Of a stretch of DNA of 64,000 nucleotides, positions 1-21,900 are shown piece by piece. Every line of letters starts with the position of its first letter. Position 1 is the stretch's first letter. The notes beneath the pieces were generated by a model. The model was not told where the DNA came from and did no database searches. It saw only the letters and a program-made list of their open reading frames with translations. The stretch is from a virus, in the UHGV virus genome UHGV-1353844; one strand, written 5' to 3'. Position numbers and translations under genes: made by a program.

Positions 1-64
1 ACTTCACATCTCTTCCCCTGATTCGGTACGTCACCATCTTGCTGATGATGTACGCTTAATTGCC

Positions 65-841
65 ATGATTCCTGGGGAATGGCCGAAAGTGCGTGGTCGT
101 CATATCGCTAATCGTGACAACTTTACGGTTGAGAATACGTTCAAAATTCGTGATATGGTTGGCGAAAGCATCGTTGTCTTTACCGGTGACAACTCACAAC
201 GCGGTAAACTTATCGACGGTAAATATTTCTTTAGCGACGGTGTGTTAAATAATACAGTTGACTTAGAACTTATGTTCACACCGTTTGAAGAACTCGATGC
301 TAAACCAATGGCCCGTCGTTGGTGGAGTCCAGACTACCTGGGTGCGTTCCCTAACTATTACGCGTTGGTTGAAAAAGATACCAAAGAGTATTTTGATACG
401 GAACCGTATATCGATATTGAAGGCTATCAAGAACTCGGAATTACGCATCTGGCCGACTTAATGGCGTACAGCTATAAGTTCGAATGGATTCGTGAACGTT
501 CGGTTTGGAAAGCCATCACTGACGAACACGTGATTACGAAACGCATTCGTAAACCGTGGATGCAGCATATGGTTCAGGTACGTTTTGGTCAGAGCCCAGC
601 TACCGAAGCGGACATTTCCAAACTCGTCAGCTTCTTGCTGTCGAAAGTTAAACTGACTGACGAAGAAGCCGAAGCAGTTAAGCCGATGCTTGACCGTGTT
701 GTGACCTTAGAAGACCTCAAACGGATGAATAGCCGCTACAACGAACTTAACCGTTTACTGGAAGCGTATAATTCGCCACTGATTTTAAAACCCGGTGTTA
801 ACTTCGACGAAGATCCTTTATTCGCCATCGATTATATTTAA
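65..841 (+). CDS. hypothetical protein; frame is open back to base 2, so possibly 5'-truncated by the window edge
   Basis: 258-aa ORF, no in-frame stop upstream of ATG at 65, no clear SD; first gene of plus-strand island. Confidence 0.6.
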   Translation: MIPGEWPKVRGRHIANRDNFTVENTFKIRDMVGESIVVFTGDNSQRGKLIDGKYFFSDGVLNNTVDLELMFTPFEELDAKPMARRWWSPDYLGAFPNYYALVEKDTKEYFDTEPYIDIEGYQELGITHLADLMAYSYKFEWIRERSVWKAITDEHVITKRIRKPWMQHMVQVRFGQSPATEADISKLVSFLLSKVKLTDEEAEAVKPMLDRVVTLEDLKRMNSRYNELNRLLEAYNSPLILKPGVNFDEDPLFAIDYI

Positions 842-861
842 AAATACTGGAGCAACCTGCA

Positions 862-1779
862 ATGATAGACAATGTGGAATCCAGGATCTCGACGAAGTTG
901 TACGATAAACCCACTATATTGTCCGTAGTTACGACGTCTAAGTGTAACCTAGACTGTAGTTTCTGCGGTGGAGCCTACTACATGAATCGTGAAGATTCGT
1001 CTCGTGCTTTTCAACGCGAACGTATCCTGGAATTACTACAAGAGAATCCAGCTATTAAGGAAATACATTGGACGGGTGGTGAACCGCTACTCGTCCAACG
1101 TAAGATTGAGGATTTCGTTAACGAACTGAAAGTGTCTCATCCGCACCTTGAGCATCACTTGTATACCAACGGCTTAAAACTGCGTAAATCGCATCTTACG
1201 CTGCTAAAAGACTTTGAGCATGTGTTTGTATCAATTGATGGCTACAAACGTTCTGAGCGCCCTTTTATGCGCTTTATTGAAGAGGATAGCCACGAAGCAC
1301 TGGAAGCGTTATACGAACTCGATAACTTCCAAACCTGGGCTGTGATTACGCGTGACCAGTTAGCCGATAAGCGCTGGTATGAAGATATTGTGGATTTACA
1401 TCGTGCGATGTACCACTATCGTCCCCGTGCGTTTTCTCTGATGTTTGATGCCCAAATGCCAAAACCGTTGTCTCCCGATCACATCATGAACTTCGTTTAT
1501 GGTTATTTAAAGATTCAGGAGAATATGGAACGGCTGAACGTCCAAACCGGAGAATCGTGCGGCGTGTCTGTCAGCAAGATTTTCGAAAACGAGTGTAATG
1601 TCTGTAGCGAAGAGTTGTATTTGAACGCAGATGGAACAGAACATCAGCTTCAGAATGCACCGGCTATCTTAAACGGTGGGTGCAATCAGCTTGCTTGCTC
1701 TATCGGGGTAGGTGCTTACGAGTACATTAAACGCGTGATTTATGCAGAGCGTAAAAGGATAAGCAAAGATGAGCAATAA
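862..1779 (+). CDS. radical SAM enzyme with C-terminal auxiliary Cys cluster
   Basis: CNLDCSFC (CX3CX2C) near N-terminus, GGEPLL SAM-binding motif, C-terminal Cys-rich region; SD tggag upstream. Confidence 0.75.
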   Translation: MIDNVESRISTKLYDKPTILSVVTTSKCNLDCSFCGGAYYMNREDSSRAFQRERILELLQENPAIKEIHWTGGEPLLVQRKIEDFVNELKVSHPHLEHHLYTNGLKLRKSHLTLLKDFEHVFVSIDGYKRSERPFMRFIEEDSHEALEALYELDNFQTWAVITRDQLADKRWYEDIVDLHRAMYHYRPRAFSLMFDAQMPKPLSPDHIMNFVYGYLKIQENMERLNVQTGESCGVSVSKIFENECNVCSEELYLNADGTEHQLQNAPAILNGGCNQLACSIGVGAYEYIKRVIYAERKRISKDEQ

Positions 1780-3103
1780 TGAAGCACCACGTTCACAACG
1801 TACTTACCAGGTGGTAACGAACCTGTCTTGTAACTTAGACTGTGAGTATTGTTACGAACGTAAGTATCCGCGTAATAACAAAGCGGCGGATATCGTGGAT
1901 TTCTTACACGCCTGTTTTGAGCGTGATAAAGATATTCCGAACATCGACGTCATTATTGATATCATCGGCGGCGAACCTTTTATGCAACCGAAACTGCTGT
2001 TAGCGGCGTTTGAAACCGCAGAACAGTTGTGTAAGGAGCATAATCGACCGTATATGTTCAGTATCTCCACGAACGGGACGTTGTTAGACCGTCCGTTAAA
2101 CCGTGAGATCGTCGAGCGTTGGAAAGACAAACTCTCCATCGGTGTGTCTATCGACGGGCTGCCAGAAGTCCATGACCGTTATCGTATCTTTACCACGACG
2201 CGTCAGGGTTCTTACGAAGCCGCTGTTCGTGGCTATAACTACTTAAAAGAAGTGGGTATTGCTGAACTGGGTATCAAGGCAACCTTTACAACCGAAACCC
2301 TCCCGCATTACGCGGCGAGTATGAAGTCGTTAATCGATATTGCGGGTGGTGGTACGATTTCGGGTAACGTGACGTACGAAGATATCCTTCCACGGAGCAT
2401 GGCAACGGATATTGCGTTGCAGATGATCGAGGTGATGGATTATTGGATTGAGAAAGGGCTGCACACCAATCCACGTAACGTGTTGTCCCACATCATTCCT
2501 GAAGGTCTGGATTTCCGTCAGATTTGGGACCCAGATTGGCGTGATAAACTGCTGTACGACGACACGCACCGTTATAACCCTGAACGTTTACGTCCGTTCT
2601 GTGGGACGTTGACGTTTATGACTTGTTTAGGTTTTGACCGTAAGGTGTATGGTTGTAACCGATTCATGTCAACGGTAACGTCACGCTCTGCGGTGTTTGA
2701 GTTAGTCGGTCGTGAGTTTGTTAGCTTAGACGGCGGGAAACTGCTGGAAGAGATTCAGACGCAATACACCAACTATCCTGAAACGTGCTTAGGTTGTCCG
2801 ATGAAACACGGTTGTGGGAGCTGTGCAGCTGCTTCCTACGAAAACGGTGAAGGGACACTGGAAGACCGTAAGGCGTACCACGCTGAACGACGTCAATGTG
2901 GTTGGACGACCGCAAAACTGATGGCGGCAGAATACTGGCGTCAACGTACAGGCACCGTCCACGCATCGTCACTGCACGATTCGTCTGTTTGTTACTGTCC
3001 GAAATGTACGCGTGAGCGTGAGCAAGCTAAACGTGCGTTAAATGCACAACCTACTGAGGCAAATAATGAAATCAATTCTGATCCACAATTTTACGAAGCG
3101 TAA
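1769..3103 (+). CDS. radical SAM enzyme with SPASM-type C-terminal domain
   Basis: CNLDCEYC motif, GGEPF motif, C-terminal CLGCPMKHGCGSCAAAS cluster; overlaps upstream gene by 11 nt. Confidence 0.75.
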   Translation: MSNNEAPRSQRTYQVVTNLSCNLDCEYCYERKYPRNNKAADIVDFLHACFERDKDIPNIDVIIDIIGGEPFMQPKLLLAAFETAEQLCKEHNRPYMFSISTNGTLLDRPLNREIVERWKDKLSIGVSIDGLPEVHDRYRIFTTTRQGSYEAAVRGYNYLKEVGIAELGIKATFTTETLPHYAASMKSLIDIAGGGTISGNVTYEDILPRSMATDIALQMIEVMDYWIEKGLHTNPRNVLSHIIPEGLDFRQIWDPDWRDKLLYDDTHRYNPERLRPFCGTLTFMTCLGFDRKVYGCNRFMSTVTSRSAVFELVGREFVSLDGGKLLEEIQTQYTNYPETCLGCPMKHGCGSCAAASYENGEGTLEDRKAYHAERRQCGWTTAKLMAAEYWRQRTGTVHASSLHDSSVCYCPKCTREREQAKRALNAQPTEANNEINSDPQFYEA

Positions 3104-3632
3104 ACTCCACCTGGTTGAGCGTTTTCTGCGCAAACACAAACTCTATAACGTTCACGCCATTATCCCTGGTGAAGACTTTACAGATGAGATTAAACCTCTG
3201 TTGATTAAGTACGGGCTAAACGTGATGATTCCCGTTTACTGTACAGAGACAGGCCATGAGTCCGTTGTGGAAATCGAAAAACGTAATCCGGGTTTCGAAC
3301 AACGCGTACTGGATTACCCACGCCACAAGATCGAATTGCTTCGTTATTCTGCGGAGAATCCGAGTAGCGCATCTATTGCTGCATTAGCGGTGTCTTTCCC
3401 GCGTCTGCCAATCCGTTGCTTGCGTTCTACGTCTATCTACGATGCTTATTACGTAGAGCATCAGACGTTCAACGAAAATGTGTTACCACAGTTAACGGAT
3501 GAAGAACGCGACATTGCAAACGTGGTGTGGTCAAACGATCTCTCTGAAACCTTCCAGTTGGTTGATTTTGGCTTGCTGCAAGAATTAGGTATGGTTGGAG
3601 AAGAAGAATGTCTGCTTCTAACAAAAGCTTAA
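3042..3632 (+). CDS. hypothetical protein, radical SAM island partner; likely true start ATG at 3066 with SD gagg
   Basis: ORF with coding codon bias; overlaps neighbours. Confidence 0.6.
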   Translation: MHNLLRQIMKSILIHNFTKRKLHLVERFLRKHKLYNVHAIIPGEDFTDEIKPLLIKYGLNVMIPVYCTETGHESVVEIEKRNPGFEQRVLDYPRHKIELLRYSAENPSSASIAALAVSFPRLPIRCLRSTSIYDAYYVEHQTFNENVLPQLTDEERDIANVVWSNDLSETFQLVDFGLLQELGMVGEEECLLLTKA

Positions 3633-4282
3633 CGAAAGAAGAGATTCGGGCGCGTTATTTCGCGCACGATCTGCCAATTGACCGCCACGGTAACTACATG
3701 GAACGTGTAGGTAACGAAGACCGTGGTCGTACGGGGTTCTGTGCATTACTGCACTATAAGTTGATTGAAGGGATGAGTGATGAAGAAGCTTTAGCTCAGA
3801 TGCAAACTTACGAAATGTCTCCTATTGAGGCGAAGTTTACACTGAACAAAGCAAAAGAATTCATTACTGACGTTCTGGAGATTAACCTGGACGAGATTCG
3901 TTCGAATATGCGCTCGACGTCTCGCTATATCTATTTAGATATCCAGAAAATCATGTTGGAAATTGAACACCGATACGAAGACCAGCGTCACGGTTATATC
4001 GAAGTTGACGGCCATCATTTCCAAGCGGATGAAACCTCTCGTCAGATGCTGGGTCAATATATCCAGTCTGAAACTGCACCGGATTATTGGCTGGACACGT
4101 CGAATACACGTATAGAACCGTTTACGCTGGAGCAATGTAAAGCGTTAATGGCGGCTATTGTGAAACGTGACCAACAGCTACACAACGCGATGTCTGCCCA
4201 GAAAAGTGAAATTCGTCAGTACGCCGAACAGCGTGACTACGACACGATCCGTGCACTTGCGCTGGAAATGGGATTAGAATAA
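3608..4282 (+). CDS. hypothetical protein, radical SAM island partner
   Basis: 224-aa ORF, SD ggag, followed by strong bidirectional terminator. Confidence 0.65.
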   Translation: MSASNKSLTKEEIRARYFAHDLPIDRHGNYMERVGNEDRGRTGFCALLHYKLIEGMSDEEALAQMQTYEMSPIEAKFTLNKAKEFITDVLEINLDEIRSNMRSTSRYIYLDIQKIMLEIEHRYEDQRHGYIEVDGHHFQADETSRQMLGQYIQSETAPDYWLDTSNTRIEPFTLEQCKALMAAIVKRDQQLHNAMSAQKSEIRQYAEQRDYDTIRALALEMGLE

Positions 4283-4332
4283 AAAATACCTACCTCCGTA
4301 AAGGAGGTAGGTAAACTTATTATTTTTTGTTA
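4280..4332. terminator. bidirectional rho-independent terminator between convergent genes
   Basis: hairpin tacctacctcc-gtaa-aggaggtaggta flanked by A-run and T-run. Confidence 0.7.
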
Positions 4333-4350
4333 TAGTAGTTGACTTAGCGG

Positions 4351-4881
4351 TTAAGCAGTAAAACCGTCCAATTCACCGTCGGTGGTGGCCAGGTCAATAC
4401 GATTATCGACTACCTTCGGTGTAATTACGAAAGTTGCCATTACACCCGGTTTATAACGGAGGTTCTGTTCAGTAACGGTGCATGTCACGGTACGCAGAGT
4501 GACGTTTTCATGTTCGTCTTTCTGGTCTTCGGTGCTGTACACAACGTCACCTGGCGCGATAGCGTCGTCAGGTTTTACTTTGTTGATGTATAGCTGTAAC
4601 CAAGCGCGGAGTTCATTTTCTTGAACCCAACGAGACAGATCGTCAGTTAGTTCAATCCGTCCTACAACACCCGGCTCCAGACGATCGTAATGCAGTTCGA
4701 TTTCGCCTTTGAAATTCTCAGAACCCGGTAGTGCGGTCATGGTAACTTTGGTATTCTTACTTTCGCCTTCCAGCGCAGTAGGGAGACCAAAGGACACTTC
4801 TTTATCTGTAATCTGATGCGGTAGCTCAGCGTTAGCAGCATTATAAAGCGCGACCAACATCATCTGGTTAGTAGCGGCCAT
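4351..4881 (-). CDS. paralog-family protein (HY.RL / ELDGFTA motifs), likely abundant virion protein
   Basis: 176-aa ORF with strong optimal codon bias; paralog of 4951-5487. Confidence 0.6.
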   Translation of the reverse strand: MAATNQMMLVALYNAANAELPHQITDKEVSFGLPTALEGESKNTKVTMTALPGSENFKGEIELHYDRLEPGVVGRIELTDDLSRWVQENELRAWLQLYINKVKPDDAIAPGDVVYSTEDQKDEHENVTLRTVTCTVTEQNLRYKPGVMATFVITPKVVDNRIDLATTDGELDGFTA

Positions 4882-4905
4882 TATCTTAGGTCCTTAATAG
4901 AACAA

Positions 4906-4930
4906 GTTAGAGAAATATCGGGGGAGGTCA
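4906..4930 (-). terminator. GC-rich hairpin with C8 homopolymer between paralog genes
   Basis: atcggggg...cccccccgat inverted repeat. Confidence 0.4.
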
Positions 4931-4950
4931 CCCCCCCCGATTTAACTTAC

Positions 4951-5487
4951 TTAGCCACCGACACCCGGTGCAGTGAAGCCATCAAGTTCACCTTCCAGAC
5001 CGCTCAGCGCTACCTTCTCAGGAGCTGGGTTGGAATAAGTGAAGGTGGCAATAGTACCAGCCAGGAATTTAATGTGTGCATCGTTTACTTTGACAGTGTA
5101 AACTTTAGCACCACTATCCCCGTCAGTTTTCTCAATGGTCAGTTCGCTTTCAGCGAAATAGTCATCGACATAACCTTTAGTAACCATTTCTTCGTTCAGT
5201 TTGGTTACAATGGCAGAGTTTTCCAGATCGAGGCTACCGGCTTTTTCGTAAGCTTTGGCACCGATCAGGTCTTGAGAAGCCAGACGAATGTAGTGGAATT
5301 CTTTCTCGCCTTTGAAGTTCTGGCTTTCTGCCTTGGCGGTCAGCGTAATTTTGGTGTTACGACCACCGGTACCGCTGTGCGCTTCGACAGCACCAAAATC
5401 GACATCATCAACCGTCAGATTAGAAGCGGTTCCTGGGTTTTTAGCAATTACAGCTTCGACGAACTGCAGTTTGAAGGTTTTAGCCAT
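4951..5487 (-). CDS. paralog-family protein (HY.RL / ELDGFTAPGVGG C-terminus), likely abundant virion protein
   Basis: 178-aa ORF, strong codon bias, SD gaggt; antisense ORFs 5074-5509 are shadows. Confidence 0.6.
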   Translation of the reverse strand: MAKTFKLQFVEAVIAKNPGTASNLTVDDVDFGAVEAHSGTGGRNTKITLTAKAESQNFKGEKEFHYIRLASQDLIGAKAYEKAGSLDLENSAIVTKLNEEMVTKGYVDDYFAESELTIEKTDGDSGAKVYTVKVNDAHIKFLAGTIATFTYSNPAPEKVALSGLEGELDGFTAPGVGG

Positions 5488-5625
5488 CTTTTTACCTCGT
5501 AAGTGGTAGGGGTGGATTGCATAAGAATGTTATTTTAGACATTTCCTAAAATATAGATATGACGGTTGGCAGTAGGCGCTAACCTGAAAAAATTAATTTT
5601 TCTTAATTTTAATAAGGGTGAGATT

Positions 5626-6105
5626 ATGCTAAAACGCATTCTCGTGGTCGTTGCTTTTGTAATGACATTGGCAAGTTGTGCTATTCAGCCGAACGCAGAA
5701 GGTCAGTTCTCCACCGTACCTGTTGACCAACACGATATGGTCATTTACACCTGTACAGCTGCTTCTCAAGAATTCGACGATTTTAAACCGGTACCGTCTA
5801 GCCTAAAACTGATGCCCCTTTCGGTGTTAGTCATGGATACAGGGGCGAATTGGGTCGCTACATGGGACGAAGGTAAAATTGAATCTCCGCAACTTTATAA
5901 AGACCTGTTAGGCAAGGTGGACGGTAACTTAAACGTTGTTACCGGTGAGCGCTATTACCGTGTAAACGGGTTACTGTCGAAAACCCCAACGTTTGCGTAT
6001 TCTACCGTCAACTACAAAACGGGTGAAGGTAAAGGTGTAACGTTCTTCAGATGTCACGAAGGCAGCATTCCGGATACCGGCACTATGTTGCACCCGGTAG
6101 AATAA
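5626..6105 (+). CDS. lipoprotein (signal peptide plus lipobox LASC); moron-like opposite-strand gene
   Basis: MLKRILVVVAFVMTLASC N-terminus; ATG at 5626 with SD; the ORF-track start at 5566 is a TTG extension. Confidence 0.65.
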   Translation: MLKRILVVVAFVMTLASCAIQPNAEGQFSTVPVDQHDMVIYTCTAASQEFDDFKPVPSSLKLMPLSVLVMDTGANWVATWDEGKIESPQLYKDLLGKVDGNLNVVTGERYYRVNGLLSKTPTFAYSTVNYKTGEGKGVTFFRCHEGSIPDTGTMLHPVE

Positions 6106-6225: not shown

Positions 6226-6741
6226 TTAGATTTTAACTAAGGCGCTCCAATCGATAGGGCTTTGTTTCACGACTTTCACAGTACCGCGATTCGGTGACCA
6301 GAACGTGATATTCGGTTGGTTACGAACGTCGATATGTAACCAACTGATGTCGCATTCGATAAAGTGAATGAACGGAAATTCGTCAGGATTAGCGGCGATA
6401 TAGTCGTGGACTTGTTTTACCGTTGAGTCTAACAGTGTTGCGTCAAATGCATTACCGAACTTGTGCTGACTCCCTGAATCAGAGTAGAGTTGTAACGCAC
6501 GTTGTTTATAGTTACCACCCTTAGGCTTTTCTTGGTTGATGAAAAAGTCTAAGGTTCTTAGGCCACGCTGTTGCGCAGCAGACGAGTTAATCACCATTCT
6601 GCCGAAACGGTTACGAATCTGTTGTAGCGAAATCATTAACAACGGGTTCATAAACCGAATTGCAGAATCACCGTATTTGGCGATGTACGATTGTGGTACT
6701 AACTCTTTGAGTTTAAAGTTACTCGGATTTGGATGAAACAT
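6226..6741 (-). CDS. zinc peptidase M15-like (D-Ala-D-Ala carboxypeptidase / L-Ala-D-Glu peptidase fold), cell-wall hydrolase
   Basis: SQHKFGNAFDA (SxHxxGxAxD) and HIDVR motifs. Confidence 0.55.
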   Translation of the reverse strand: MFHPNPSNFKLKELVPQSYIAKYGDSAIRFMNPLLMISLQQIRNRFGRMVINSSAAQQRGLRTLDFFINQEKPKGGNYKQRALQLYSDSGSQHKFGNAFDATLLDSTVKQVHDYIAANPDEFPFIHFIECDISWLHIDVRNQPNITFWSPNRGTVKVVKQSPIDWSALVKI

Positions 6742-7393
6742 CTTCCCTCCCAGACAGAAAAGCCCGTTTGATGTTCAAGTATTTGACATTAACGGGACAA
6801 CCTGTGGTGATATCAACACGTTCGTGGTCAGGAATAGCAGGCTCCTTAAACTCACGAACGAACAAATAGTTTCGATTGTAATCTAACGTACGGTAATCGT
6901 TAGTGGTATAAGACGGCTTCGCGTTAGGGTCTACGTAAGCATCCCAACCGAACCCCGCCACGGCTTTATAAAATGTTTGGCAGATATACGGCGAGATTTC
7001 CAACGACTGCATAATACGCAGGAATGTTAAGTCAGAGAACTCTTTATCGATAATACGCGAAACGTTACCACCCGGTGTCATGGGATAGCTACGCTCCGTG
7101 TTACATTTTTGATAGAGTAAGTCGTGAATGCAGGCCGCAGGTGCCCACGGTCCGTCAGGATGGAAAATTCCCTGTAAGTGTTCAGGAATTGACGCTAAAT
7201 CGGTAACGAACCCTTTCGGAGCGGTTAACCACAGTTGCGTGTCAGGTAATACACCGGTTAAATAAACCGCACGGTCTAAGTGTACGTGGTCGTGATAAAT
7301 CTCACGTAACGTAAACGGATAATGGTAATCCTCCGTTAATACAAACCACTTATTATCTAAACGTTTATATTGAAGCTTTTCCATTACCCACAC
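6719..7393 (-). CDS. DUF1353-like protein
   Basis: TDLASIPE and HDLLY motifs typical of DUF1353. Confidence 0.45.
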   Translation of the reverse strand: MWVMEKLQYKRLDNKWFVLTEDYHYPFTLREIYHDHVHLDRAVYLTGVLPDTQLWLTAPKGFVTDLASIPEHLQGIFHPDGPWAPAACIHDLLYQKCNTERSYPMTPGGNVSRIIDKEFSDLTFLRIMQSLEISPYICQTFYKAVAGFGWDAYVDPNAKPSYTTNDYRTLDYNRNYLFVREFKEPAIPDHERVDITTGCPVNVKYLNIKRAFLSGREDVSSKSE

Positions 7394-7500
7394 CTTTCCT
7401 TACAAAAACCAGAAGAACTCTTGTCCACGTTTTTCGTCTTTACGTTTCCGTCCAGACGTTAACGCTTTCCACAATAACGCTAAGAGTTTAGCAAACCAGT

Positions 7501-8091
7501 TCATTTTACTAACCCCGCTTTTACCGCATAATCTGCCATTTCTCTGAAGACGCGGCCGTACCAACCGTAGGTGTATTTCTCGTTTCTCTTACGTTTTTCG
7601 GAGATTTCCGTGTAGTAAGTTACTTGGTGCGAGATTAACGCAAAGATTAAAATGCTTAGCCCTTCATCTTTACGATATTTCAGGTACGCGTTCAACGCGC
7701 CCAGCGTTTTAGGCCCCATACCGCCGTCGGTATCGATGTCCGCGTAGAGTTTACCTTCGTTGTTCAACACGTTGAGAATACGCTGTAGCGATTTCACGCA
7801 GTTGGCACGACCTGCGTTAATACCAAAATCAAACATCCGGTCCGCGAGTAACGGTGAGATAGCGAAAATCTCATCAAGTTTGAGCTTCTTCCACCAACCG
7901 CGATCGTAGATATCGAATGCTTGTGCACGGGTAAGGTCTTTCATCTTCCCTGTGTAACCGTACTCACGTGCAGTCGTTACCGTGATACCGTGGTTCGTTT
8001 CTGCACCTAAGTCGTCAGGGTCGTTGACGTACCCGCCTTCCAAATCGGTTTTGGATTCAATGATACCTTCTTTAGACCAACGTTCAGCCAT
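7501..8091 (-). CDS. GH108-like lysozyme with C-terminal PG_binding_3-like domain (endolysin candidate)
   Basis: EGGYVNDPDDLGAETNHGIT N-terminal motif; C-terminal peptidoglycan-binding-like region. Confidence 0.55.
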   Translation of the reverse strand: MAERWSKEGIIESKTDLEGGYVNDPDDLGAETNHGITVTTAREYGYTGKMKDLTRAQAFDIYDRGWWKKLKLDEIFAISPLLADRMFDFGINAGRANCVKSLQRILNVLNNEGKLYADIDTDGGMGPKTLGALNAYLKYRKDEGLSILIFALISHQVTYYTEISEKRKRNEKYTYGWYGRVFREMADYAVKAGLVK

Positions 8092-8154: not shown

Positions 8155-8634
8155 TTATTTTTTCTTCTTAGCGCGTGATGGCTTAGCTGGCGGTGTTTCA
8201 ACAGCCGGTTTACGTGCAACACGCACCGTAAAACCGCCGACCCAAGTCAGACACTCAGGACGGAAGAAAATACCGTGTTCGATTGCGCTACCGTCCAACG
8301 GTAACTCACCAACCTGTTCTACCCACACGTCGTCTTCTGTAAGGGTTAGGCTGTACTGCTCGTTAATGACGGGCAGTAAGTCAGCGGTAGTCGTTGCAGA
8401 TTCTACCAACAGTTTCGGTAATACGTTCAGGAAATACAAACCTGCGTCAATGCGGTTATACTGGAACGTTTGTTCGTTAGTGTAACCGAGATTCTTAATT
8501 GACGCAACTGTGATTTCGGTATTGTAAGTACCGGTGGTCACAACCGGATCGCCCAGCGTGACTTTGGTGGTGTCGAACTCAGCGTCCGGGTTAGCCTTTT
8601 TAATAAGGTCGAAGATAGTTTCTTGATTGGTCAT
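8155..8634 (-). CDS. paralog-family protein (YNRID motif), basic C-terminal tail
   Basis: 159-aa ORF; shares Y.R[IL]...DLL..IN..Y.L motif with 8648, 16961, 26897. Confidence 0.6.
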   Translation of the reverse strand: MTNQETIFDLIKKANPDAEFDTTKVTLGDPVVTTGTYNTEITVASIKNLGYTNEQTFQYNRIDAGLYFLNVLPKLLVESATTTADLLPVINEQYSLTLTEDDVWVEQVGELPLDGSAIEHGIFFRPECLTWVGGFTVRVARKPAVETPPAKPSRAKKKK

Positions 8635-8647
8635 TACTGTAATCCTC

Positions 8648-9496
8648 TTAATCTAAGAATCCCGGTAAGACCGGATTAGTCTGTGCTAATTCAATCTTCG
8701 ACTTCGGACGATCGGTACCGTTAAAGTGAATTAACAGGTTACCGGTCAGGTTAGAACACAGCGGGCTGAGCGTTAGCACCAACACACGAGTGAACTTCGT
8801 ATTTGCGCCTTCGTAACCTGCGGTTGGACCATCGTAAATAACTTTAGCACCGTACAGGTTGTTAGCCGCGTTCTTAGGTACACTTACCCATTTCTCATCA
8901 ACGACGCCATCCAGTTTAGAGGCTAACTCTACCAAGTCTACGGTGTCGTTGATAGTAATCGGGTCAAGGTAATCTTTTTCTGCGGTGAAATCAATCGGGT
9001 GTGAATAAACCGCAGCGTTACCTTTCTTAGTGGACGGATACTCTACCAGATTCTCTAATTGAGTAACTGGTAAAAGTTCAGTCAGGTCAATAGGATCATG
9101 CAGCGTAAGCGTTACTACACCGCACCACTCGTAAGATTTCTCGTTAGCGGTAAGCTGATGGGTTTCGCCTTCAACTTTTGCGTCAACGATATCCGAGGGT
9201 AAAATATTTAGGCTGTATTTTGCGTTGATCGCATTAAGCAAATCTGATGCGGTTACCACACTGTCGTTACCGAATACCAACTCACCGGTTAAGTAGTCAG
9301 GTAAATTACGACGGTGGTAAGTCACTGTTAAAGTAGTAGACTCATCGCCTTTGAGTTTAGAGGTCAGAACCACCTGGGTATCAACCCCAGTACCGGTAGG
9401 TTCTCCGATATCAACATCACTGAAAGTCAACGGTGGACTAATATTGTTTTCAGTGTTGATGAGTTTTAGCAGTTTCTGTTTTGACGTAAGAGACAT
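8648..9496 (-). CDS. paralog-family protein (structural candidate)
   Basis: 282-aa ORF; motif similarity to 8155-8634. Confidence 0.6.
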   Translation of the reverse strand: MSLTSKQKLLKLINTENNISPPLTFSDVDIGEPTGTGVDTQVVLTSKLKGDESTTLTVTYHRRNLPDYLTGELVFGNDSVVTASDLLNAINAKYSLNILPSDIVDAKVEGETHQLTANEKSYEWCGVVTLTLHDPIDLTELLPVTQLENLVEYPSTKKGNAAVYSHPIDFTAEKDYLDPITINDTVDLVELASKLDGVVDEKWVSVPKNAANNLYGAKVIYDGPTAGYEGANTKFTRVLVLTLSPLCSNLTGNLLIHFNGTDRPKSKIELAQTNPVLPGFLD

Positions 9497-9599
9497 CGCG
9501 TTAACTCACAGTAAGTAAAAAGGTTTAAGAGGTCGTTTTACATCCCTCAGCCAGCATAGGAATAGTCGGGTAGGGTGTAAGTAAAGTAGCGTCAAAATA

Positions 9600-9656
9600 A
9601 CAAAAAAGAAAAGGGAAAGAAAATTAATTCCGCTATAGACCGAAGCCTATAGCGGA
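9600..9656 (-). terminator. rho-independent terminator
   Basis: ccgctatag-accgaagc-ctatagcgg hairpin preceded by A-rich run on plus strand. Confidence 0.6.
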
Positions 9657-9662
9657 GAGAGG

Positions 9663-10094
9663 TTAGCGAACGTTGTGTGCTAGGTACATCAGGGTCCGGG
9701 TGTCGATATCACGAGAAGTTTGCGACATCTGACTCAGTAGAGTGCTGGCAGTAGGGTCGTTGTAAACACGACTTAACCACTCGTCAACCATTTCTGGTAC
9801 AGTGTCGACTAAAAGCGGATAGTTAAGATTTTCCAGTGTGTATTCAACGAATTCGTGCATCAGATTCTGGTCACGATGCATAGAGTCGCCTAATTCACCT
9901 GCGGGATACTCTTCACGAGGACGTTTACCCCAGCTACAGATGTGCATGTAGTTAGTATTCACAATTTCCTGATATTCTTCTAACTTAACTAAATCGAAAT
10001 CAGTATTTGGACGACAGAAACCTGCTAAAACGCCCAGGGCAATCGGGTTGTTGCGAATGTAGTTACGGATATCATCTTTTAATACGAAAAACAT
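9663..10094 (-). CDS. hypothetical protein, paralog of 11352-11783
   Basis: 143-aa ORF; shared DxRxYIR and YPxGxxG motifs. Confidence 0.6.
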   Translation of the reverse strand: MFFVLKDDIRNYIRNNPIALGVLAGFCRPNTDFDLVKLEEYQEIVNTNYMHICSWGKRPREEYPAGELGDSMHRDQNLMHEFVEYTLENLNYPLLVDTVPEMVDEWLSRVYNDPTASTLLSQMSQTSRDIDTRTLMYLAHNVR

Positions 10095-10114
10095 TTTAAT
10101 GCTCCTTTAGGTAA

Positions 10115-10150
10115 ATACAATAATAGAGGGGTGGTTTACCACCCCTTGGA
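10115..10150 (-). terminator. rho-independent terminator
   Basis: aggggtgg-ttta-ccacccct hairpin. Confidence 0.55.
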
Positions 10151-10163
10151 CGATTTTAGTTAA

Positions 10164-11330
10164 TTAGCGATGCTTCTGACAGTTAGGGCAGTTGCAACCT
10201 ACGCCAGAAGATATTTCTCTAAAGTACGCGTCGAGTAAGTGCTCGTTATTATTAAGAAAACGAACTGACCACAAGTCACGCAGATGAGTTTTTAACTTTC
10301 CAATAATACCGGGTTCATAGTTGAGTAGAATGGTAAGTGTATCGTTTTTGTAAGTCCACTGACGGACTTTCTCAGGAAACCAACGAGTGATATCACGCAT
10401 AAACGTATCGGCATCTTCTTTCCCAATAGTAGTGATTGTTAGAAGACGTAGACGGTTGTCAACAATCTCATTAATGAGACTATGAATTTCTTCTTCAAAA
10501 GCAATGTTCCACCATTTCCATTTAAAGGTGAGTTTTTCGCCCTCGAGTTTGGTCTCTACCTTGGTAGAATAGAATGCTGTCAAAGTGTCATTAATCGCTT
10601 CGGCATCTGGACCAGTGTATGTAAAGGCTTTCAACACATCGGACTCTTCACGCGGTTGCTCCCCTTCTTCGAGTTGGTTAAGAAAAATTTTCTTTGTTAA
10701 CTTACGCATACAGATGTTCAGTTGATTAATAACAACAGGGTCATTATCAACAAGCACAGTTAGAGTATCGCCAGCATAATTAGACTGGCGAATTTTCTCC
10801 TTGTGTTCGTGAACAACTATACGCATGAATTCGTCCGCTTCACCTTTTCCGATACCTTGAAACGAAATAAGTCGAACGGTGTCGTTATCGATCAGCTCAG
10901 CGACAGAACGTACTTCTTCCATGAGGTTACGATCGTCATTCTTCAATCGAACGACGAGTTTGCTGTTATCCCAGTAAATGCCTAAATCATCGGGATAGAA
11001 GGTCTCTAACGCCTCTTTAATATCCTTAATCTTTTCGCCTTCGTACCAGAGGACGTGCGGTTCGTCTTTCTGCTGCTCTTCGACTTTCGGTTGCTCTGTC
11101 TCGGTTGTTTCTACCGGGTTGAGCAACTCACCGATTTCCACCGCGATAGTGTCGCAAAGGTAATCGTTGCTGTGAGTCCAGTAGAACACGATGCTTTCAT
11201 CGTTGACTTGTTCTACACGGAAATGCACACCTTTATCCAGGAATATACGATAAAGTTGATCGAGTAACTGTGCTTCAGGAACCGGACGGATTTCAGTTTT
11301 AACGAGCGGTGTAATCTCAATATTAAACAT
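10164..11330 (-). CDS. hypothetical protein with internal repeated ~60-aa domain and C-terminal CxC..C motif
   Basis: 388-aa ORF; repeats around GKGEADEFMRIVV and GKEDADTFMRDIT; antisense ORFs 10482-11267 are shadows. Confidence 0.65.
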   Translation of the reverse strand: MFNIEITPLVKTEIRPVPEAQLLDQLYRIFLDKGVHFRVEQVNDESIVFYWTHSNDYLCDTIAVEIGELLNPVETTETEQPKVEEQQKDEPHVLWYEGEKIKDIKEALETFYPDDLGIYWDNSKLVVRLKNDDRNLMEEVRSVAELIDNDTVRLISFQGIGKGEADEFMRIVVHEHKEKIRQSNYAGDTLTVLVDNDPVVINQLNICMRKLTKKIFLNQLEEGEQPREESDVLKAFTYTGPDAEAINDTLTAFYSTKVETKLEGEKLTFKWKWWNIAFEEEIHSLINEIVDNRLRLLTITTIGKEDADTFMRDITRWFPEKVRQWTYKNDTLTILLNYEPGIIGKLKTHLRDLWSVRFLNNNEHLLDAYFREISSGVGCNCPNCQKHR

Positions 11331-11351
11331 GGTACTTTTCCTTTTGGTAAA

Positions 11352-11783
11352 TTATTCGTAGTTGTGCTTAAGGAACTCTAAAGCACGTTGGTCATTGGTT
11401 AATGCTACCGCCGACATTTTCTTTAAGGCTTGACGACAGTAAGCGTCACTCACAATACGTTGCTGCCAAGCATTAACAATTTCCGTGACTGTTTCTCCTT
11501 CTACAGCCGTATTGAGTTTATCGATAAAGTGACGTCCCATCAGATACGCAACTGCGTAGTCTGTGAACATCTCTGTACCGAAATCGCCGTCTGGGTAGTC
11601 AGCACGTTTCCGCACTGACATATCGGTAACAATTTGATACGACGACTTCACCACTTCGTGGAATTTTTCTACCGTTAAGGTATTAAGGTCCATACCCGAT
11701 AAAGAGAGTGAAGCCAGTACCGGAATACTGGCTGGGTATTTACGAATGTAATCACGCAAATCAGAATTTAGGGTTTTCATCAA
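11352..11783 (-). CDS. hypothetical protein, paralog of 9663-10094
   Basis: 143-aa ORF. Confidence 0.6.
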   Translation of the reverse strand: MMKTLNSDLRDYIRKYPASIPVLASLSLSGMDLNTLTVEKFHEVVKSSYQIVTDMSVRKRADYPDGDFGTEMFTDYAVAYLMGRHFIDKLNTAVEGETVTEIVNAWQQRIVSDAYCRQALKKMSAVALTNDQRALEFLKHNYE

Positions 11784-12525
11784 TTAATCCTGCCTTTATC
11801 CAATTTAAATAGTTAACACCAACTTTTACCGGAGTAAGTTTGTCGAGTTCCTTTATTAGCAGATCGTAGACGCGACGACCGACGCGGTTGTCACAAGTGA
11901 ACGAAGTTAATCCGTTAGCTCTTACAGTCACGCAAAACATTTCGCGAGTTTGTAAGTAGTCGTCATTGATTTTGTCTACAATTCCTTTGATCTCTTCGTA
12001 ATTGTAATAAGCAATCCGATCTTTGTGTAATAAGAACCATTCCGTAGCCTCGAATCTTCCCGGTACATGCGGAATATAGTCATAACGAATAAGGTTGTTA
12101 GGATGTACTTTTCCGTCGTAAGCGAGGGTGTAAAGATCTACGCAGTATGAAGGGTTGTGTTCAAAAAACTCTCTGAGTTTAGTGAGGTTTTTCTTTGGAG
12201 AATGCTTAAAATAAACAATATAGTTATTGCTATCAACCTCAACGATACCGTATAGTTTCTCAGAAACTGCCATAAATAACTTCTCGGCAGACTTTATGTC
12301 TTCTCCAGGTTTAACAAAGTTCAGAACTAAACAGGTAGCTTCGTCGGCAATAACGTCGGTAATGAATTCGTTTGCCCTATTTAATTCAACTTCATCAAAA
12401 CCGGCAATCTTAAGTTCGTTCCCGTAGAATTGATAAGCTAAATGCGGTGTAGAATTTTTCAGGAAGCTCGTGATAATGTGTCCTTGCTCGCGTACGTTGC
12501 TGTTTTTGAATTCGATAGTTTTCAT
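11761..12525 (-). CDS. hypothetical protein
   Basis: 254-aa ORF. Confidence 0.6.
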   Translation of the reverse strand: MKTIEFKNSNVREQGHIITSFLKNSTPHLAYQFYGNELKIAGFDEVELNRANEFITDVIADEATCLVLNFVKPGEDIKSAEKLFMAVSEKLYGIVEVDSNNYIVYFKHSPKKNLTKLREFFEHNPSYCVDLYTLAYDGKVHPNNLIRYDYIPHVPGRFEATEWFLLHKDRIAYYNYEEIKGIVDKINDDYLQTREMFCVTVRANGLTSFTCDNRVGRRVYDLLIKELDKLTPVKVGVNYLNWIKAGLIDENPKF

Positions 12526-18136: not shown

Positions 18137-18919
18137 TTAAACACGTGAACCATATATTGCACCTACTGCGTCCCATCTTGGCGCATTACCTCTAACGGCT
18201 GCACCAGCGGCTCCGCCGTTATATTCTGTACCGTTACCATGAGTATTACATCTTCCTCCAGCAGCACCGACATTACCACCCGAACCGCCTGTATATGCAC
18301 TAAGAGACCCCTCACCAACAGATCCTCTACCAGGAGCGGAAATAGTACCAGCAGCTGCACCGGAACTCATATGTGAGGAAGACCCACCAGCACCGAATGG
18401 GCGACCACCGCCACCACCAAATATTAGTCTACCCCTGTTACCGCCGCCACCGCCGCCACCGCCTCCGGCAATAGCGCCACGGTTGGTTATACGCAGTCTG
18501 TTTCCTATTCCGTTCTGTATTGCGGTTCCACCTGCACCGCCTGGTGAGTTAGAACCGCCGTTGCCTCCTCTGCCGTATACTGTAACCCCAGGATTGATGA
18601 TGAGTGTAATATACGAATTTGGAAGATTGCTAGGGAATTCTAAACAAGGAACCCCGCTACTATAAGACACTAAATCCCCTGTAATGGTCACAACGACAGC
18701 ATTAGAGCCTATAGAACGTAAATAGTTAATAAGCGTATCTTTATTGTAATTGTGATTAGCCCCGATCGAATACTGAACCTCTTTTGATTTTCCCGCCAAT
18801 TGCGACATCCAGCCTGGAACCGGCACACCAAGTGTGCGCATCGCGCCAGACATCCAATCGTTACCAGTTTCAGCTTTTGCTGAAGAACCAATCCAACCAC
18901 CTACGCCGACAACTGCCAT
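18137..18919 (-). CDS. glycine-rich protein immediately downstream of tail fibre (possible adhesin or tip protein)
   Basis: poly-Gly tracts (GGGGGGGGGN, GGGGRPFGAGG); start overlaps fibre stop (TAATG). Confidence 0.6.
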   Translation of the reverse strand: MAVVGVGGWIGSSAKAETGNDWMSGAMRTLGVPVPGWMSQLAGKSKEVQYSIGANHNYNKDTLINYLRSIGSNAVVVTITGDLVSYSSGVPCLEFPSNLPNSYITLIINPGVTVYGRGGNGGSNSPGGAGGTAIQNGIGNRLRITNRGAIAGGGGGGGGGNRGRLIFGGGGGRPFGAGGSSSHMSSGAAAGTISAPGRGSVGEGSLSAYTGGSGGNVGAAGGRCNTHGNGTEYNGGAAGAAVRGNAPRWDAVGAIYGSRV

Positions 18920-21900
18920 TAGGATCTTCCTTTAATTTCGTTAACCTCTTGACGCAACGCTTTCATACCCTCTACTAACAGCGCAATAACGCCATTGTAG
19001 TTTAGACGTAAACGTTTTTCGCCTGAAATGGCATCATCATCCTCAGACACAAGTTCAGGTAACGCTTCTAATGCGTCTTGAGCAATTAGACCTACCGAAG
19101 TGTTCCAACCGTCGTCTGGATGTTGAACCTCGTACAGATAGCCGGTAAGCGCTTCTAACCGATCCAAAGCCTTATCCAGCTTCACCAGATTACGTTTGTT
19201 GCGACGGTCAGAACGAATCTGTACGTCGTTAAACGAACCGTTACCGTTGCTAGAAATGTTATGACCAAAGGTTACTTGACCGTTAGAGTTATTAAAATAC
19301 AACGGACGTAGTCCGTTCCAGGAACCCGTTGCGGCTTGTCCGGAGTCGGTTACTAAGAAATAGGTATTGGCACCATCATTACGTAAAATGAAACCGCAGC
19401 TACCGTAAGCGATTCGGAAATCAGCATACTTCGTAACCAGTTTACCGTTAACCGTTAAATCGCCAGTGACAGTACCGCCGCTGTTCTTCAAAAACAGCGC
19501 ATCAATCCAGCCTGCAAATCCTGACTTATTGATGTATAAATTTCCATCATTTGCCAGAATGCCGCCACCCGGCGTCTTGAGAGGCTGACTCACATTTTGC
19601 AGCGTCAGCACACCATTCAATTGACCGCCAGATAATGGCAACGCCCCAACATCCGCAGCAGTTGGCTTGTTTTTCGTATTGTAAGCGCGACGCCAACCTG
19701 GTGAGTAAGCATCACCGTTATTTACGTAGATAAACTCCGCATTAGTGAGTGCGCCGCCGACGCTCGTCGTTGTGGGGGTCGTTATACGGATCGTGTAGTT
19801 GTTTGCGCTGTTACTAATCACTTCTATAACAGCCCCAGCTAACGGAATAACACCACAACCCGTCTCGCTGTTCGGTATGGACGCACTAGCAGCATAAGCC
19901 CATGCACAGCGAGCAACCCATGATTTTGTGGTAAACGCGCCGTTATTTTGCAATAACGTCACTAGCTGTGCTGTAGTTATTGCGCCGCCGTCTTTACCAG
20001 TCTCCAACCAACCAGTGGGCGAAGCCGGACAACCTATATCGGCAGGCCCTAACGATATATTTCTAGTACCGTCAAATGCGATACCGTTAATGGTACGCGC
20101 TGTCTGCAACTTTGTTGCCGTGGCTGCGTTTCCGGTAGTCGACTGATTACCCGTCTGGTTTACACCGGGCAGACTAATGTCTTGCGAACCGTCAAAGTTA
20201 ACACCGCCGATCTTACGTGCTGTTTGTAACTTAGTAGCGGTCGCTGCATTACCTGTCGTATTCTGGTTGCCTTGCTGGTTAACCCCCGGTAAATTGATAT
20301 CCCCAGTACCGTCAAAGGTAACGCCGCCGATTCTGCGAGCGGTTTTCAGTTTCGTCGCGGTAGCGGCATTGCCAGTAGTATCCTGATTACCGGTGGTATT
20401 TACACCAGGAATACTGTCACGGGCAGTATAAACTTGTGCCCAATCTGACCACGGCGCATCAGCCGTATCGCGTCGACTACGAATATAAACGGGTGCGTGT
20501 GCACCACTCGTGCCCGACCAACCAATTAACAACTCACCTTCGCCTAGCGCATTAGCACCACCTAAGTGCAGCAAGTTACCATAGGCGGTTGGATAACCGT
20601 TATTGTAAACTTCGTACATCTGGATACCAGGTGTACCCTTGTTCGACCCGGTCAGAGCGGTAACCCGTCCACGACCTACCAAGGTGTTGATATTGATGTC
20701 TCCAGAGCCATCGAATTTCACACCGTTAATATTTCTGGCGGTTTGAAGTTTAGTGGCTGTCGCGGCGTTACCTGTGGTGTTTTGATTACCTTGTTGGTTA
20801 ACACCTGGGAGGTTAACGTCGCCGCTGCCGTCGAAAGCGACCCCGCCAATTCTACGCGCAGTCTGGAGCTTAGTGGCGGTTGAAGCATTGCCGGTTAACT
20901 CACCTGCTAACCCTTTTGCAAAGGTCTGTTTCTCTGCCCAAGTGTGGGCTGCGTTCAACACAGGCATCTGTCGTGGCGTAATCGTACGGCTACCCTTCTC
21001 GCCAGCGATACGTACTGCAAAGAAGCGATAGTTAGCAGTAGACACTGTACCGCGCCAGACCAACATACTCCGACCAGTACCGGTGTCCTCTGACGCCCCT
21101 ACGAGAATACTGACCAAGTTACCGTCAATAACACCCCAATCCATTCCCGCAGGAATGTTTTTCATGGTATTCAACGGTGTACTTATCATCTGGCCAGGAA
21201 CGAAATCGAAGGTTTGCCAGTCTAACGGATCGACCTTGGCAGCAACCCCACCGATCCCTAAAGCCAACGGGAGTGAATAGGATGTGAAAATCTCTCGCCA
21301 TTCGCTCCAGGCGTTTCCTGTACGAATTCGTTGGAACTTGCGACCTTTCGTAGTTGCGCCTGTACCGTATGTGGTATAATTTTGTTCAACGCCTGAACCG
21401 TCTAAGCGTAAGGTAACTTCGCAAACACCTAACAAGGTTGCGCCAGCAGAGTCTGTTAACGGACCGTCAGTAGCCTCACCGGTAACACTAAAACGACCAG
21501 GTTTAGTTAAGTCATTAAAGCTACCCTTATAGTAGGCACCGTCTACCTGATACCCAACTTGAATCCAATCTTCCCACTGTGGATTAGACGCATCCCAAGT
21601 CGCAGTCAACCCACGGACATACATCGTACCACGACGAGTGGTGTAACGTTGCATACGTCCGTAGAGACCACCTTCCATTACTTCTAATACACCTTGAGCA
21701 TTACCACCTTCTTCGGGATAATGACGATCGAACGTCGCAAGAGAAGAACTGGAGTTACGCCACTGACCCATGTGTTCAACACCACCTAAAGTGTTAAGGT
21801 CAATAGTGGTGGAGAGCGGACGGTTCGCGGTAGTTGTCATTCTCCAGGGCGACCAAGGGCCGTTAGTACCGTTCCAGGTTCCTGTTAAACGACGAGTATA

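Follow-up and report, generated by a model that had tools for sequence, protein, structure and literature searches.

Radical SAM (S-adenosylmethionine) enzymes of the SPASM type provide the closest described counterparts of a gene cluster that we analyse here in a viral DNA stretch of 64,000 nucleotides, UHGV virus genome UHGV-1353844 (below, the window, meaning this whole stretch). The nearest described system is defined by the family models TIGR04115 and TIGR04114 (PF27846), in which a radical SAM/SPASM enzyme without an RRE (recognition element for RiPPs, peptides made on ribosomes and modified after translation) adjoins a gene for a long Cys-X3 repeat protein. QhpD is a radical SAM/SPASM enzyme that cross-links Cys to Asp or Glu in a subunit that remains in a larger assembly. 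CteB, the SCIFF/thermocellin thioether synthase (PDB 5wgg), carries an N-terminal RRE of ~100 residues and has as its substrate a six-Cys peptide of ~45 residues. PapB installs six Cys-X3-Asp thioethers, one per short unit of its tandem-repeat substrate (PMC9413430). The cluster in the window encodes two tandem radical SAM enzymes. They are probably the catalytic part of a phage maturation system that modifies Cys-repeat, fibre-like proteins, possibly with thioether-type cross-links.

The phage locus shares with the TIGR04115/TIGR04114 system the RRE-less radical SAM/SPASM enzyme next to a long Cys-X3 repeat gene, and such an adjacent target gene was found in every close relative of the window. 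Unlike the single-enzyme loci of the TIGR04115 type, it always includes another radical SAM enzyme, of smaller size, together with a protein related to gp165 of Salmonella phage SPN3US. The PapB/freyrasin system is similar in that a radical SAM/SPASM enzyme acts on repeated short Cys-X3 units, but PapB requires an Asp or Glu acceptor, whereas the phage units read C-S-G-[S/G/T] and hold few acidic residues; furthermore, its substrate PapA is a short free peptide, whereas the candidate phage substrates are fibre-linked proteins. CteB is the best solved-structure match for both phage enzymes, which are without its RRE. QhpD (TIGR03906) is among the profile matches and resembles the proposed system in the stapling of a structural protein, but it matches only weakly (55 bits, where the cutoff is 453), and the few cross-links that it makes are in the subunit of an enzyme that has neither repeats nor a connection to phages. 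No published link among radical SAM enzymes, Cys-X3 repeats and phage fibres was found in the searchable literature, the nearest remark being that radical SAM cassettes are among the differences between the host-recognition clusters of pelagimyophages (PMC7029224).

The cluster lies at the beginning of the window and comprises the following features.

1-841, plus strand: accessory protein of the gp165 type, truncated at the 5' end by the window edge (279 of 295 codons in the window; true start 47 nt before base 1)
862-1779, plus strand: small radical SAM enzyme, 305 aa, counterpart of SPN3US gp164, PF04055 55.8 bits
1769-3103, plus strand: large radical SAM/SPASM enzyme, 444 aa, counterpart of SPN3US gp163, PF04055 53.3 bits
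3042-3632 (start at 3042, or at 3066 as called in related contigs), plus strand: gp162-like protein, 196 aa, phrog_7988 9.8e-78
3608-4282, plus strand: gp161-like protein, 224 aa, with a C-terminal DUF4376 domain (PF14301, 43.3 bits against a cutoff of 25)
4287-4313, both strands: terminator-like hairpin, in which 11 bp of stem, 6 of them G-C pairs, enclose a 5-nt loop; T-run strong on the minus strand

Its similarity to known genomes places the window among the SPN3US-like jumbo phages. The region is ~73% identical in DNA to SPN3US and to Erwinia, Escherichia, Proteus and Cronobacter relatives, and the five cluster genes match SPN3US gp165, gp164 (annotated 'radical SAM 2'), gp163 ('radical SAM 1'), gp162 and gp161. 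Homologues of the 444-aa enzyme were found in 71 phage records, all from the SPN3US-like jumbo clade except for a few gut-virome contigs. Contigs that encode a protein identical to this enzyme are 95-96% identical to the window in DNA; the window begins at what is position 8233 in these contigs.

An earlier note, made from the letters of the window, had described a plus-strand island of two tandem radical SAM enzymes and two uncharacterised partners in one operon, closed by a bidirectional terminator. The four open reading frames (ORFs) are present as described, each overlapping the next, and the motifs CNLDCSFC and CNLDCEYC, the GGEP motif of both enzymes and the terminal Cys cluster CLGCPMKHGCGSCAAAS are all found in the sequence. 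The operon holds as well, with the upstream gene included, and the closing hairpin is terminator-like on both strands and lies between convergent genes. The upstream gene had been taken as an ORF at 65-841; it does belong to the operon, but it is cut by the window edge, since its frame is open from base 2 and matches a 295-aa protein from residue 17 onward. Likewise, the strand switch is real on the downstream side, but the window edge is in part responsible for the island look, because SPN3US and the 95%-identical contigs carry the plus-strand tail/baseplate genes gp168 and gp167 further upstream.

Both enzymes score well above the PF04055 cutoff of 29.5 bits and are radical SAM proteins, as had been proposed. 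The best NCBIfam matches of the 444-aa enzyme are TIGR04115 (5.6e-36) and then the PapB model NF047865 (7.5e-32), and by these matches the enzyme is best described as a divergent sister of the TIGR04115 maturases of CXXX-repeat targets. The C21/C25/C28 triad is invariant in 24 homologues, down to 27% identity, and a seven-Cys C-terminal pattern, C278-x9-G288-x7-C296 / C340-x2-C343-x5-C349-x2-C352 / C377, is conserved in these 24. It departs by two small spacing differences from the canonical SPASM motif (C-x9-15-G-x4-C ... C-x2-C-x5-C-x3-C ... C), the motif that binds two auxiliary 4Fe-4S clusters. Among solved structures, the family profile matches CteB over residues 104-428 (E 1.1e-38) and, in second place, anSME (E 3e-20), the alignment running through the SPASM Cys residues in both cases. 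These observations bear out the SPASM assignment of the earlier note. The isolated C-terminal segment matches positions 1-86 of the 93-position profile TIGR04085 just below its cutoff (25.0 bits against 27; E 1.9e-5), and no Pfam SPASM match (PF13186) was obtained for the large enzyme. Because the alignment to CteB begins only at residue 104, the large enzyme is without an N-terminal RRE; such a peptide-recognition domain (PqqD-like, ~90-100 aa) was found neither N-terminally nor as a separate protein. A cytidylyltransferase (PF02348) or nucleotide-sugar lead, suggested by a precomputed tag on the metagenomic proteins P0101 and P0102, was dropped because the tag was 'faint' and P0102 is a fusion of two radical SAM domains; the match of the window enzyme has an E-value of 0.2.

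In the small enzyme, C28/C32/C35, GGEP, C245 and C274 are invariant. The looser C-terminal Cys cluster ascribed to it comes down to these last two Cys residues and one semi-conserved Cys, the third position shifting between subtypes so that C248 is kept only in the jumbo-phage set. The C-terminal 81 aa gave no domain match with hidden Markov models. An AlphaFold2 (AF2) model (mean predicted local distance difference test score, pLDDT, 88.7) places a beta-hairpin and a helix between the C-terminal Cys residues, and the closest folds found with Foldseek are CteB (2e-12) and SkfB (1.4e-11), followed by SuiB and anSME. Twitch enzymes carry three or more conserved C-terminal Cys residues on a hairpin and helix of this sort, in a fold like that of SkfB or BtrN. 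The short C-terminal Cys region of the small enzyme thus appears to be a twitch or half-SPASM motif, with at most one auxiliary-cluster motif. By these sequence and fold matches, both enzymes resemble modifiers of peptides and proteins.

The two enzymes are coupled to each other and to the repeat genes. They are fused in the metagenomic protein P0102 (locus L006), where the small enzyme is N-terminal to the large one, and in L020, a close relative on an IMG/VR contig of 225 kb, a second copy of the small enzyme (6552-7475) lies between Cys-repeat genes A and B and is 63% identical to the first copy of that contig. Gene fusion in one lineage and duplication between the repeat genes in another tie both enzymes to the candidate substrates. 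A recent paralogous origin of the pair was considered and rejected, as BLASTP similarity between the two is limited to the cluster motif. A role in defence or anti-defence was also rejected, since PADLOC yields only generic matches to the viperin core.

The association between enzyme and repeat was surveyed by scanning viral contigs with the large-enzyme family, which gave 80 loci; a Cys-repeat ORF was defined as an ORF on the same strand that contains five or more C-x(2-4) units in a row. Such an ORF lies within 3 kb of the enzyme in 77 of the 80 loci, at a median distance of 876 nt. The sequence up to 3.5 kb from the enzyme, 670 kb in total, holds 112 Cys-repeat stretches, and the 785 kb lying farther out hold 0. 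In 85% of units successive Cys residues are spaced by x3, mainly Gly, Ser and Thr filling the gaps. Asp makes up ~5% of the inter-Cys residues overall, and in the jumbo-phage repeats, whose unit is C-S-G-[S/G/T], it is outside the six commonest residues at all three unit positions. The loci fall into a paired subtype, in which the gp165-like protein co-occurs with the large and small enzymes (jumbo phages, two prophages and L022/L023), and a single-enzyme subtype whose enzymes are true or near members of TIGR04115 (391, 309 and 308 bits against the cutoff of 350). In L023, a jumbo phage of 279 kb, the trio of gp165-like protein, large enzyme and small enzyme occupies 8883-12074 beside a helicase-like gene; a neighbouring 97-aa ORF ends in GCESCAMGCHGPQ and, with only three C-terminal Cys residues, may be a minimal candidate substrate. 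We consider the Cys-repeat proteins very likely to be the substrate of the radical SAM enzymes.

The earlier note had found no obvious substrate for the enzymes. This holds within the window, where six-frame scans reveal no Cys-repeat ORF, but the search for short unannotated ORFs that it had advised uncovers candidate substrate genes in the relatives, 540-1560 nt upstream of window base 1. In SPN3US three tandem plus-strand ORFs of 130, 134 and 68 aa lie between gp167 and gp165, and the 95-96% identical contigs carry the same three genes, there encoding 130, 131 and 70 aa. Each small protein begins with an N-terminal region of ~50 aa, which ends in a tail-fibre-like ...LGG.....Y motif. Repeats follow, of the form ...DCGGTCSWTCSNGCSHGC... 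in SPN3US; the repeat unit is Cys-Ser-Gly-Ser/Gly/Thr, and a single protein holds as many as 21 Cys. The first two genes (ORFs A and B) precede the gp165 homologue in the 95-96% identical contigs, in SPN3US, in phiEaH2-like and CR5-like phages and in Erwinia phages; ORF C is present in SPN3US and the 95-96% identical contigs, and CR5 has an annotated 69-aa coding sequence (CDS) at its position. Substitutions between orthologues of the Cys-repeat ORFs pile up at third codon positions (e.g. 27/17/75) and each ORF is preceded by a Shine-Dalgarno sequence; we conclude from these two features that they are real genes. With the TIGR04114 target model, ORFs A and B of locus L007 reach 19.5 and 17.6 bits (E 1e-3 and 4e-3), close to the cutoff of 20, and no Pfam match was obtained for the small Cys-repeat proteins.

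In the locus extract L001 of the SPN3US record JN641803 the three ORFs are located at 4097-4489, 4500-4904 and 4920-5126; in the record itself they lie on the complement at about 143,828-144,220, 143,413-143,817 and 143,191-143,397. The first carries no annotation, and the second has been called in the wrong frame as 'gp166' (SPN3US_0166 / ACQ60_gp100) in both GenBank and RefSeq (NC_027402, L090). In other phages, CDSs on the wrong strand have been drawn across the Cys-repeat genes, namely CR5_157 of CR5 (L091, ~1640-2450) and two CDSs of Erwinia phage pEa_SNUABM_29.

A connection to tail fibres emerges from more distant homologues. Relatives of the large enzyme with 32-39% identity that are labelled bacterial in fact sit in prophages, directly after tail-fibre genes, and are always adjoined by a second, small radical SAM gene. 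In a P2-like prophage of Campylobacter pinnipediorum the gene order is baseplate J, tail I, fibre, a 250-aa protein, large enzyme, small enzyme, DUF1353 and sheath, and in a lambda-like prophage of Deferribacter abyssi it is J, four ORFs, small enzyme and large enzyme. The fibre of the Campylobacter prophage contains the tail-collar fibre domain PF12571 (1.8e-40) and continues into a Cys-X3 C-terminal tail, ...GCNGCSGSCSGSCSSGCTACSGCSGSCSG...; Cys-X3 tails are also present in a fibre-like protein of the Deferribacter prophage (29 Cys) and in a collar-domain protein of L006 (30 Cys), both adjoining the radical SAM genes. Thus, in prophages the repeat is fused to fibre proteins. In L021 a fibre-like protein of 568 aa, likewise encoded beside the radical SAM genes, reaches its Cys-X3 tail through the junction ...LGG.....YxCGGSCSWSC, which is common to the small jumbo-phage proteins. 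The single-enzyme loci, in turn, are flanked by baseplate-wedge and tail-fibre genes.

The jumbo-phage cluster also adjoins tail genes. The products of SPN3US gp167-gp173, encoded just upstream, have been detected in virions and are tail or baseplate/fibre candidates, gp168 being a tail protein related to phiKZ gp131, whereas none of gp161-gp166 was detected (PMC5105663; PMC5694885). The absence of gp161-gp166 from the virion list fits non-structural maturation factors. For the Cys-repeat proteins themselves the list is uninformative, because their ORFs, being unannotated or mis-framed, were not in the database searched by proteomics. That these small proteins are virion components in the jumbo phages is somewhat favoured over the opposite.

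The observations above suggest the following course of events. Late in infection the large enzyme would modify the Cys-X3 repeats jointly with the small enzyme, while the gp165-like protein probably assists, perhaps by presenting the substrate. Many thioethers formed from the Cys sulfurs, which we regard as the likeliest chemistry, would stiffen the flexible repeat into a rod held by covalent staples. After maturation, the proteins would be built into the baseplate and tail-fibre apparatus, whose genes adjoin the cluster on its upstream side, with gp162 and gp161 (DUF4376) possibly serving as lineage-specific assembly helpers.

The thioether step of this scheme is proposed on the grounds that the closest characterised relatives, PapB and CteB, form thioethers, that QhpD is among the matches and that the SPASM pattern is conserved; we give it an even chance. 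The repeats might instead be substrates of a different kind of modification, becoming metal or Fe-S scaffolds or undergoing formylglycine-type oxidation, C-C or C-O linkage, methylation or epimerisation. Such an outcome would account for the few PapB-type Asp/Glu acceptors in the repeats, and it is in keeping with the many reactions catalysed by SPASM enzymes, including the oxidation carried out by anSME, and with the presence of two different radical SAM enzymes, which suggests two different reactions. On the other hand, the nearest characterised relatives by profile score (PapB, the CteB/SCIFF maturases and QhpD) all form thioethers, and Cys is the sole invariant feature of the repeat. We rate modification of the repeats by a chemistry other than thioether formation as improbable. 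About equally improbable is a reading of the Cys-repeat proteins as independent products of the RiPP kind (a toxin, a signal or a host-takeover factor) that are set free inside the infected cell or when it lyses, with the enzymes acting as maturases of a cargo and having no part in virion assembly. Their small size (70-134 aa), the leader-like N-terminal region, their absence from the SPN3US virion list and the free peptides made by the closest characterised enzymes would all agree with such a product, as would the position of the L023 trio beside a helicase gene and a 97-aa protein rather than fibre genes. Against it, the same junction motif introduces the repeat as the C-terminal tail of true fibre or fibre-like proteins in other phages, the genes sit within baseplate/tail-fibre modules in all the lineages sampled, and searches with Pfam, NCBIfam and PHROG models found no protease, exporter or immunity gene in the operon; absence from the virion list, as noted, carries no information for ORFs outside the search database.

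Of the targets envisaged in the earlier note, a phage protein or peptide modified by thioether-type chemistry is the one that the evidence favours, and its nucleic-acid option found no support. There are matches to the viperin, MoaA, QueE and NrdG models, but through the shared N-terminal radical SAM core only and at 33-51 bits, far below the curated cutoffs of 131-380, and no queuosine, ribonucleotide reductase or molybdopterin genes were found near the cluster. Activity on virion proteins such as the DUF7941 head proteins could be imagined from the DUF7941 paralogues encoded immediately downstream, which have a C-terminal ...GELDGFTA motif in common. DUF7941, however, is confined to SPN3US-like phages, whereas the linkage to Cys repeats extends across unrelated phage types, and in sequence and fold both enzymes are closest to peptide-modifying maturases. 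We consider a target of either kind, nucleotide, nucleic acid or other virion protein, very unlikely.

Several observations weigh against maturation of fibre-like proteins by thioether cross-linking. The presence of the Cys-repeat genes in the genome from which the window derives is deduced from the 95-96% identical contigs. The jumbo-phage Cys-repeat proteins are free and small, not fused to fibres, and the L023 trio, with its helicase and three-Cys protein, represents a non-fibre setting. As acidic residues are scarce in the repeats, the acceptor, and even the type of reaction, may differ from that of PapB. The CXXX-repeat family is bioinformatically defined, and no characterised product was found in the searchable literature. 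Finally, the TIGR04115 score of the 444-aa enzyme, 124.8 bits in two stretches, is below the cutoff of 350, as is its score of 110.8 bits with the PapB model (cutoff 340). The system resembles the CXXX-repeat maturases and PapB, yet its enzyme falls short of the curated cutoffs of both and its layout differs from theirs.

The gp165-like protein is rare (42 clusters among 1.84 billion representatives), its C-terminal half is homologous to the 250-aa proteins of both prophages, and no significant structural relative was found despite a confident model. It may be a substrate-presenting factor, as suggested by the large enzyme being without a recognition domain. A relationship to gp161/DUF4376 was rejected (hhalign probability 0.5%). 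For the gp162-like protein no Pfam, NCBIfam or PADLOC match was obtained. The gp161-like protein resembles, less strongly than it does DUF4376, some PHROGs whose annotation is tail or tail fibre, and may be a fibre-assembly factor; in the locus survey gp162-like and gp161-like proteins were found only in the 16 loci from SPN3US-like jumbo phages.

One further gene of the window may be connected to the cluster by synteny.

6719-7393, minus strand: DUF1353 protein, PF07087 54.7 bits

DUF1353 genes recur beside the cluster in unrelated phage types (e.g. L003, 12068-12433; L017, 12505-13275): in CR5-like phages such a gene comes immediately after gp161 and in the same orientation, and in the Campylobacter prophage it comes immediately after the small enzyme. 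Its membership is tentatively suggested by this gene order, and a functional link is possible. The SPN3US homologue is gp157, a low-abundance virion protein.

Other genes of the region lie mostly on the minus strand. The four DUF7941 paralogues are located at 4351-4881, 4951-5487, 8155-8634 and 8648-9496, the first two of them sharing the terminal motif mentioned above. The first is the counterpart of gp160 in SPN3US; this head protein belongs to paralogue family B and is reported at >300 copies per capsid (PMC5694885). A lone plus-strand ORF (5566-6105) among the minus-strand genes has a signal-peptide-like start and a lipobox-like LASC; it gave no family match and may encode a phage lipoprotein. 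A lysin-type gene with Glyco_hydro_108 and PG_binding_3 domains (7501-8091, minus strand) lies among virion genes, two genes from DUF1353. Farther along, the tail-fibre gene at 18919-23385 (minus strand) encodes 1488 aa with tandem units of ~40 aa, 'GNQNTTGNAATATKLQTAR.IGGV.FDGSGDINLPGVN', a trimerisation domain of the Gp34 type and, at the C-terminus, the intramolecular chaperone Peptidase_S74. The only Cys-repeat pattern match in the window, at 22744-22833, was rejected as a precursor peptide, because it is antisense inside this gene and hence an artefact.

A broader proposal is that several phage lineages build a hitherto unrecognised fibre element, either a Cys-X3 tail or, in SPN3US-like jumbo phages, a set of three small proteins, which dedicated radical SAM enzymes would staple into a rigid, reduction-proof rod as the virion is assembled; we advance it tentatively, rating its chances as somewhat short of even. 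If true, this would be, to our knowledge, the first RiPP-type enzymatic cross-linking of a protein of the virus particle, and in the jumbo-phage version two enzymes and a partner without recognisable fold relatives would replace the leader-recognition domain. Should the product be a virion fibre, radical stapling would constitute a new principle of phage assembly beside the HK97 isopeptide chainmail, with a bearing on fibre stiffness, on stability in reducing or protease-rich settings such as the gut, and on host recognition. The analysis provides a candidate function and a candidate substrate for SPN3US-type genes that have been named only 'radical SAM protein 1/2', and exposes three conserved genes that were missed or mis-framed in reference annotations. 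The two-enzyme, RRE-less layout with its gp165-like partner may reveal a new mode of substrate recognition. SPN3US, a Salmonella phage with amber mutants and virion proteomics, offers a tractable route to the CXXX-repeat maturase family.

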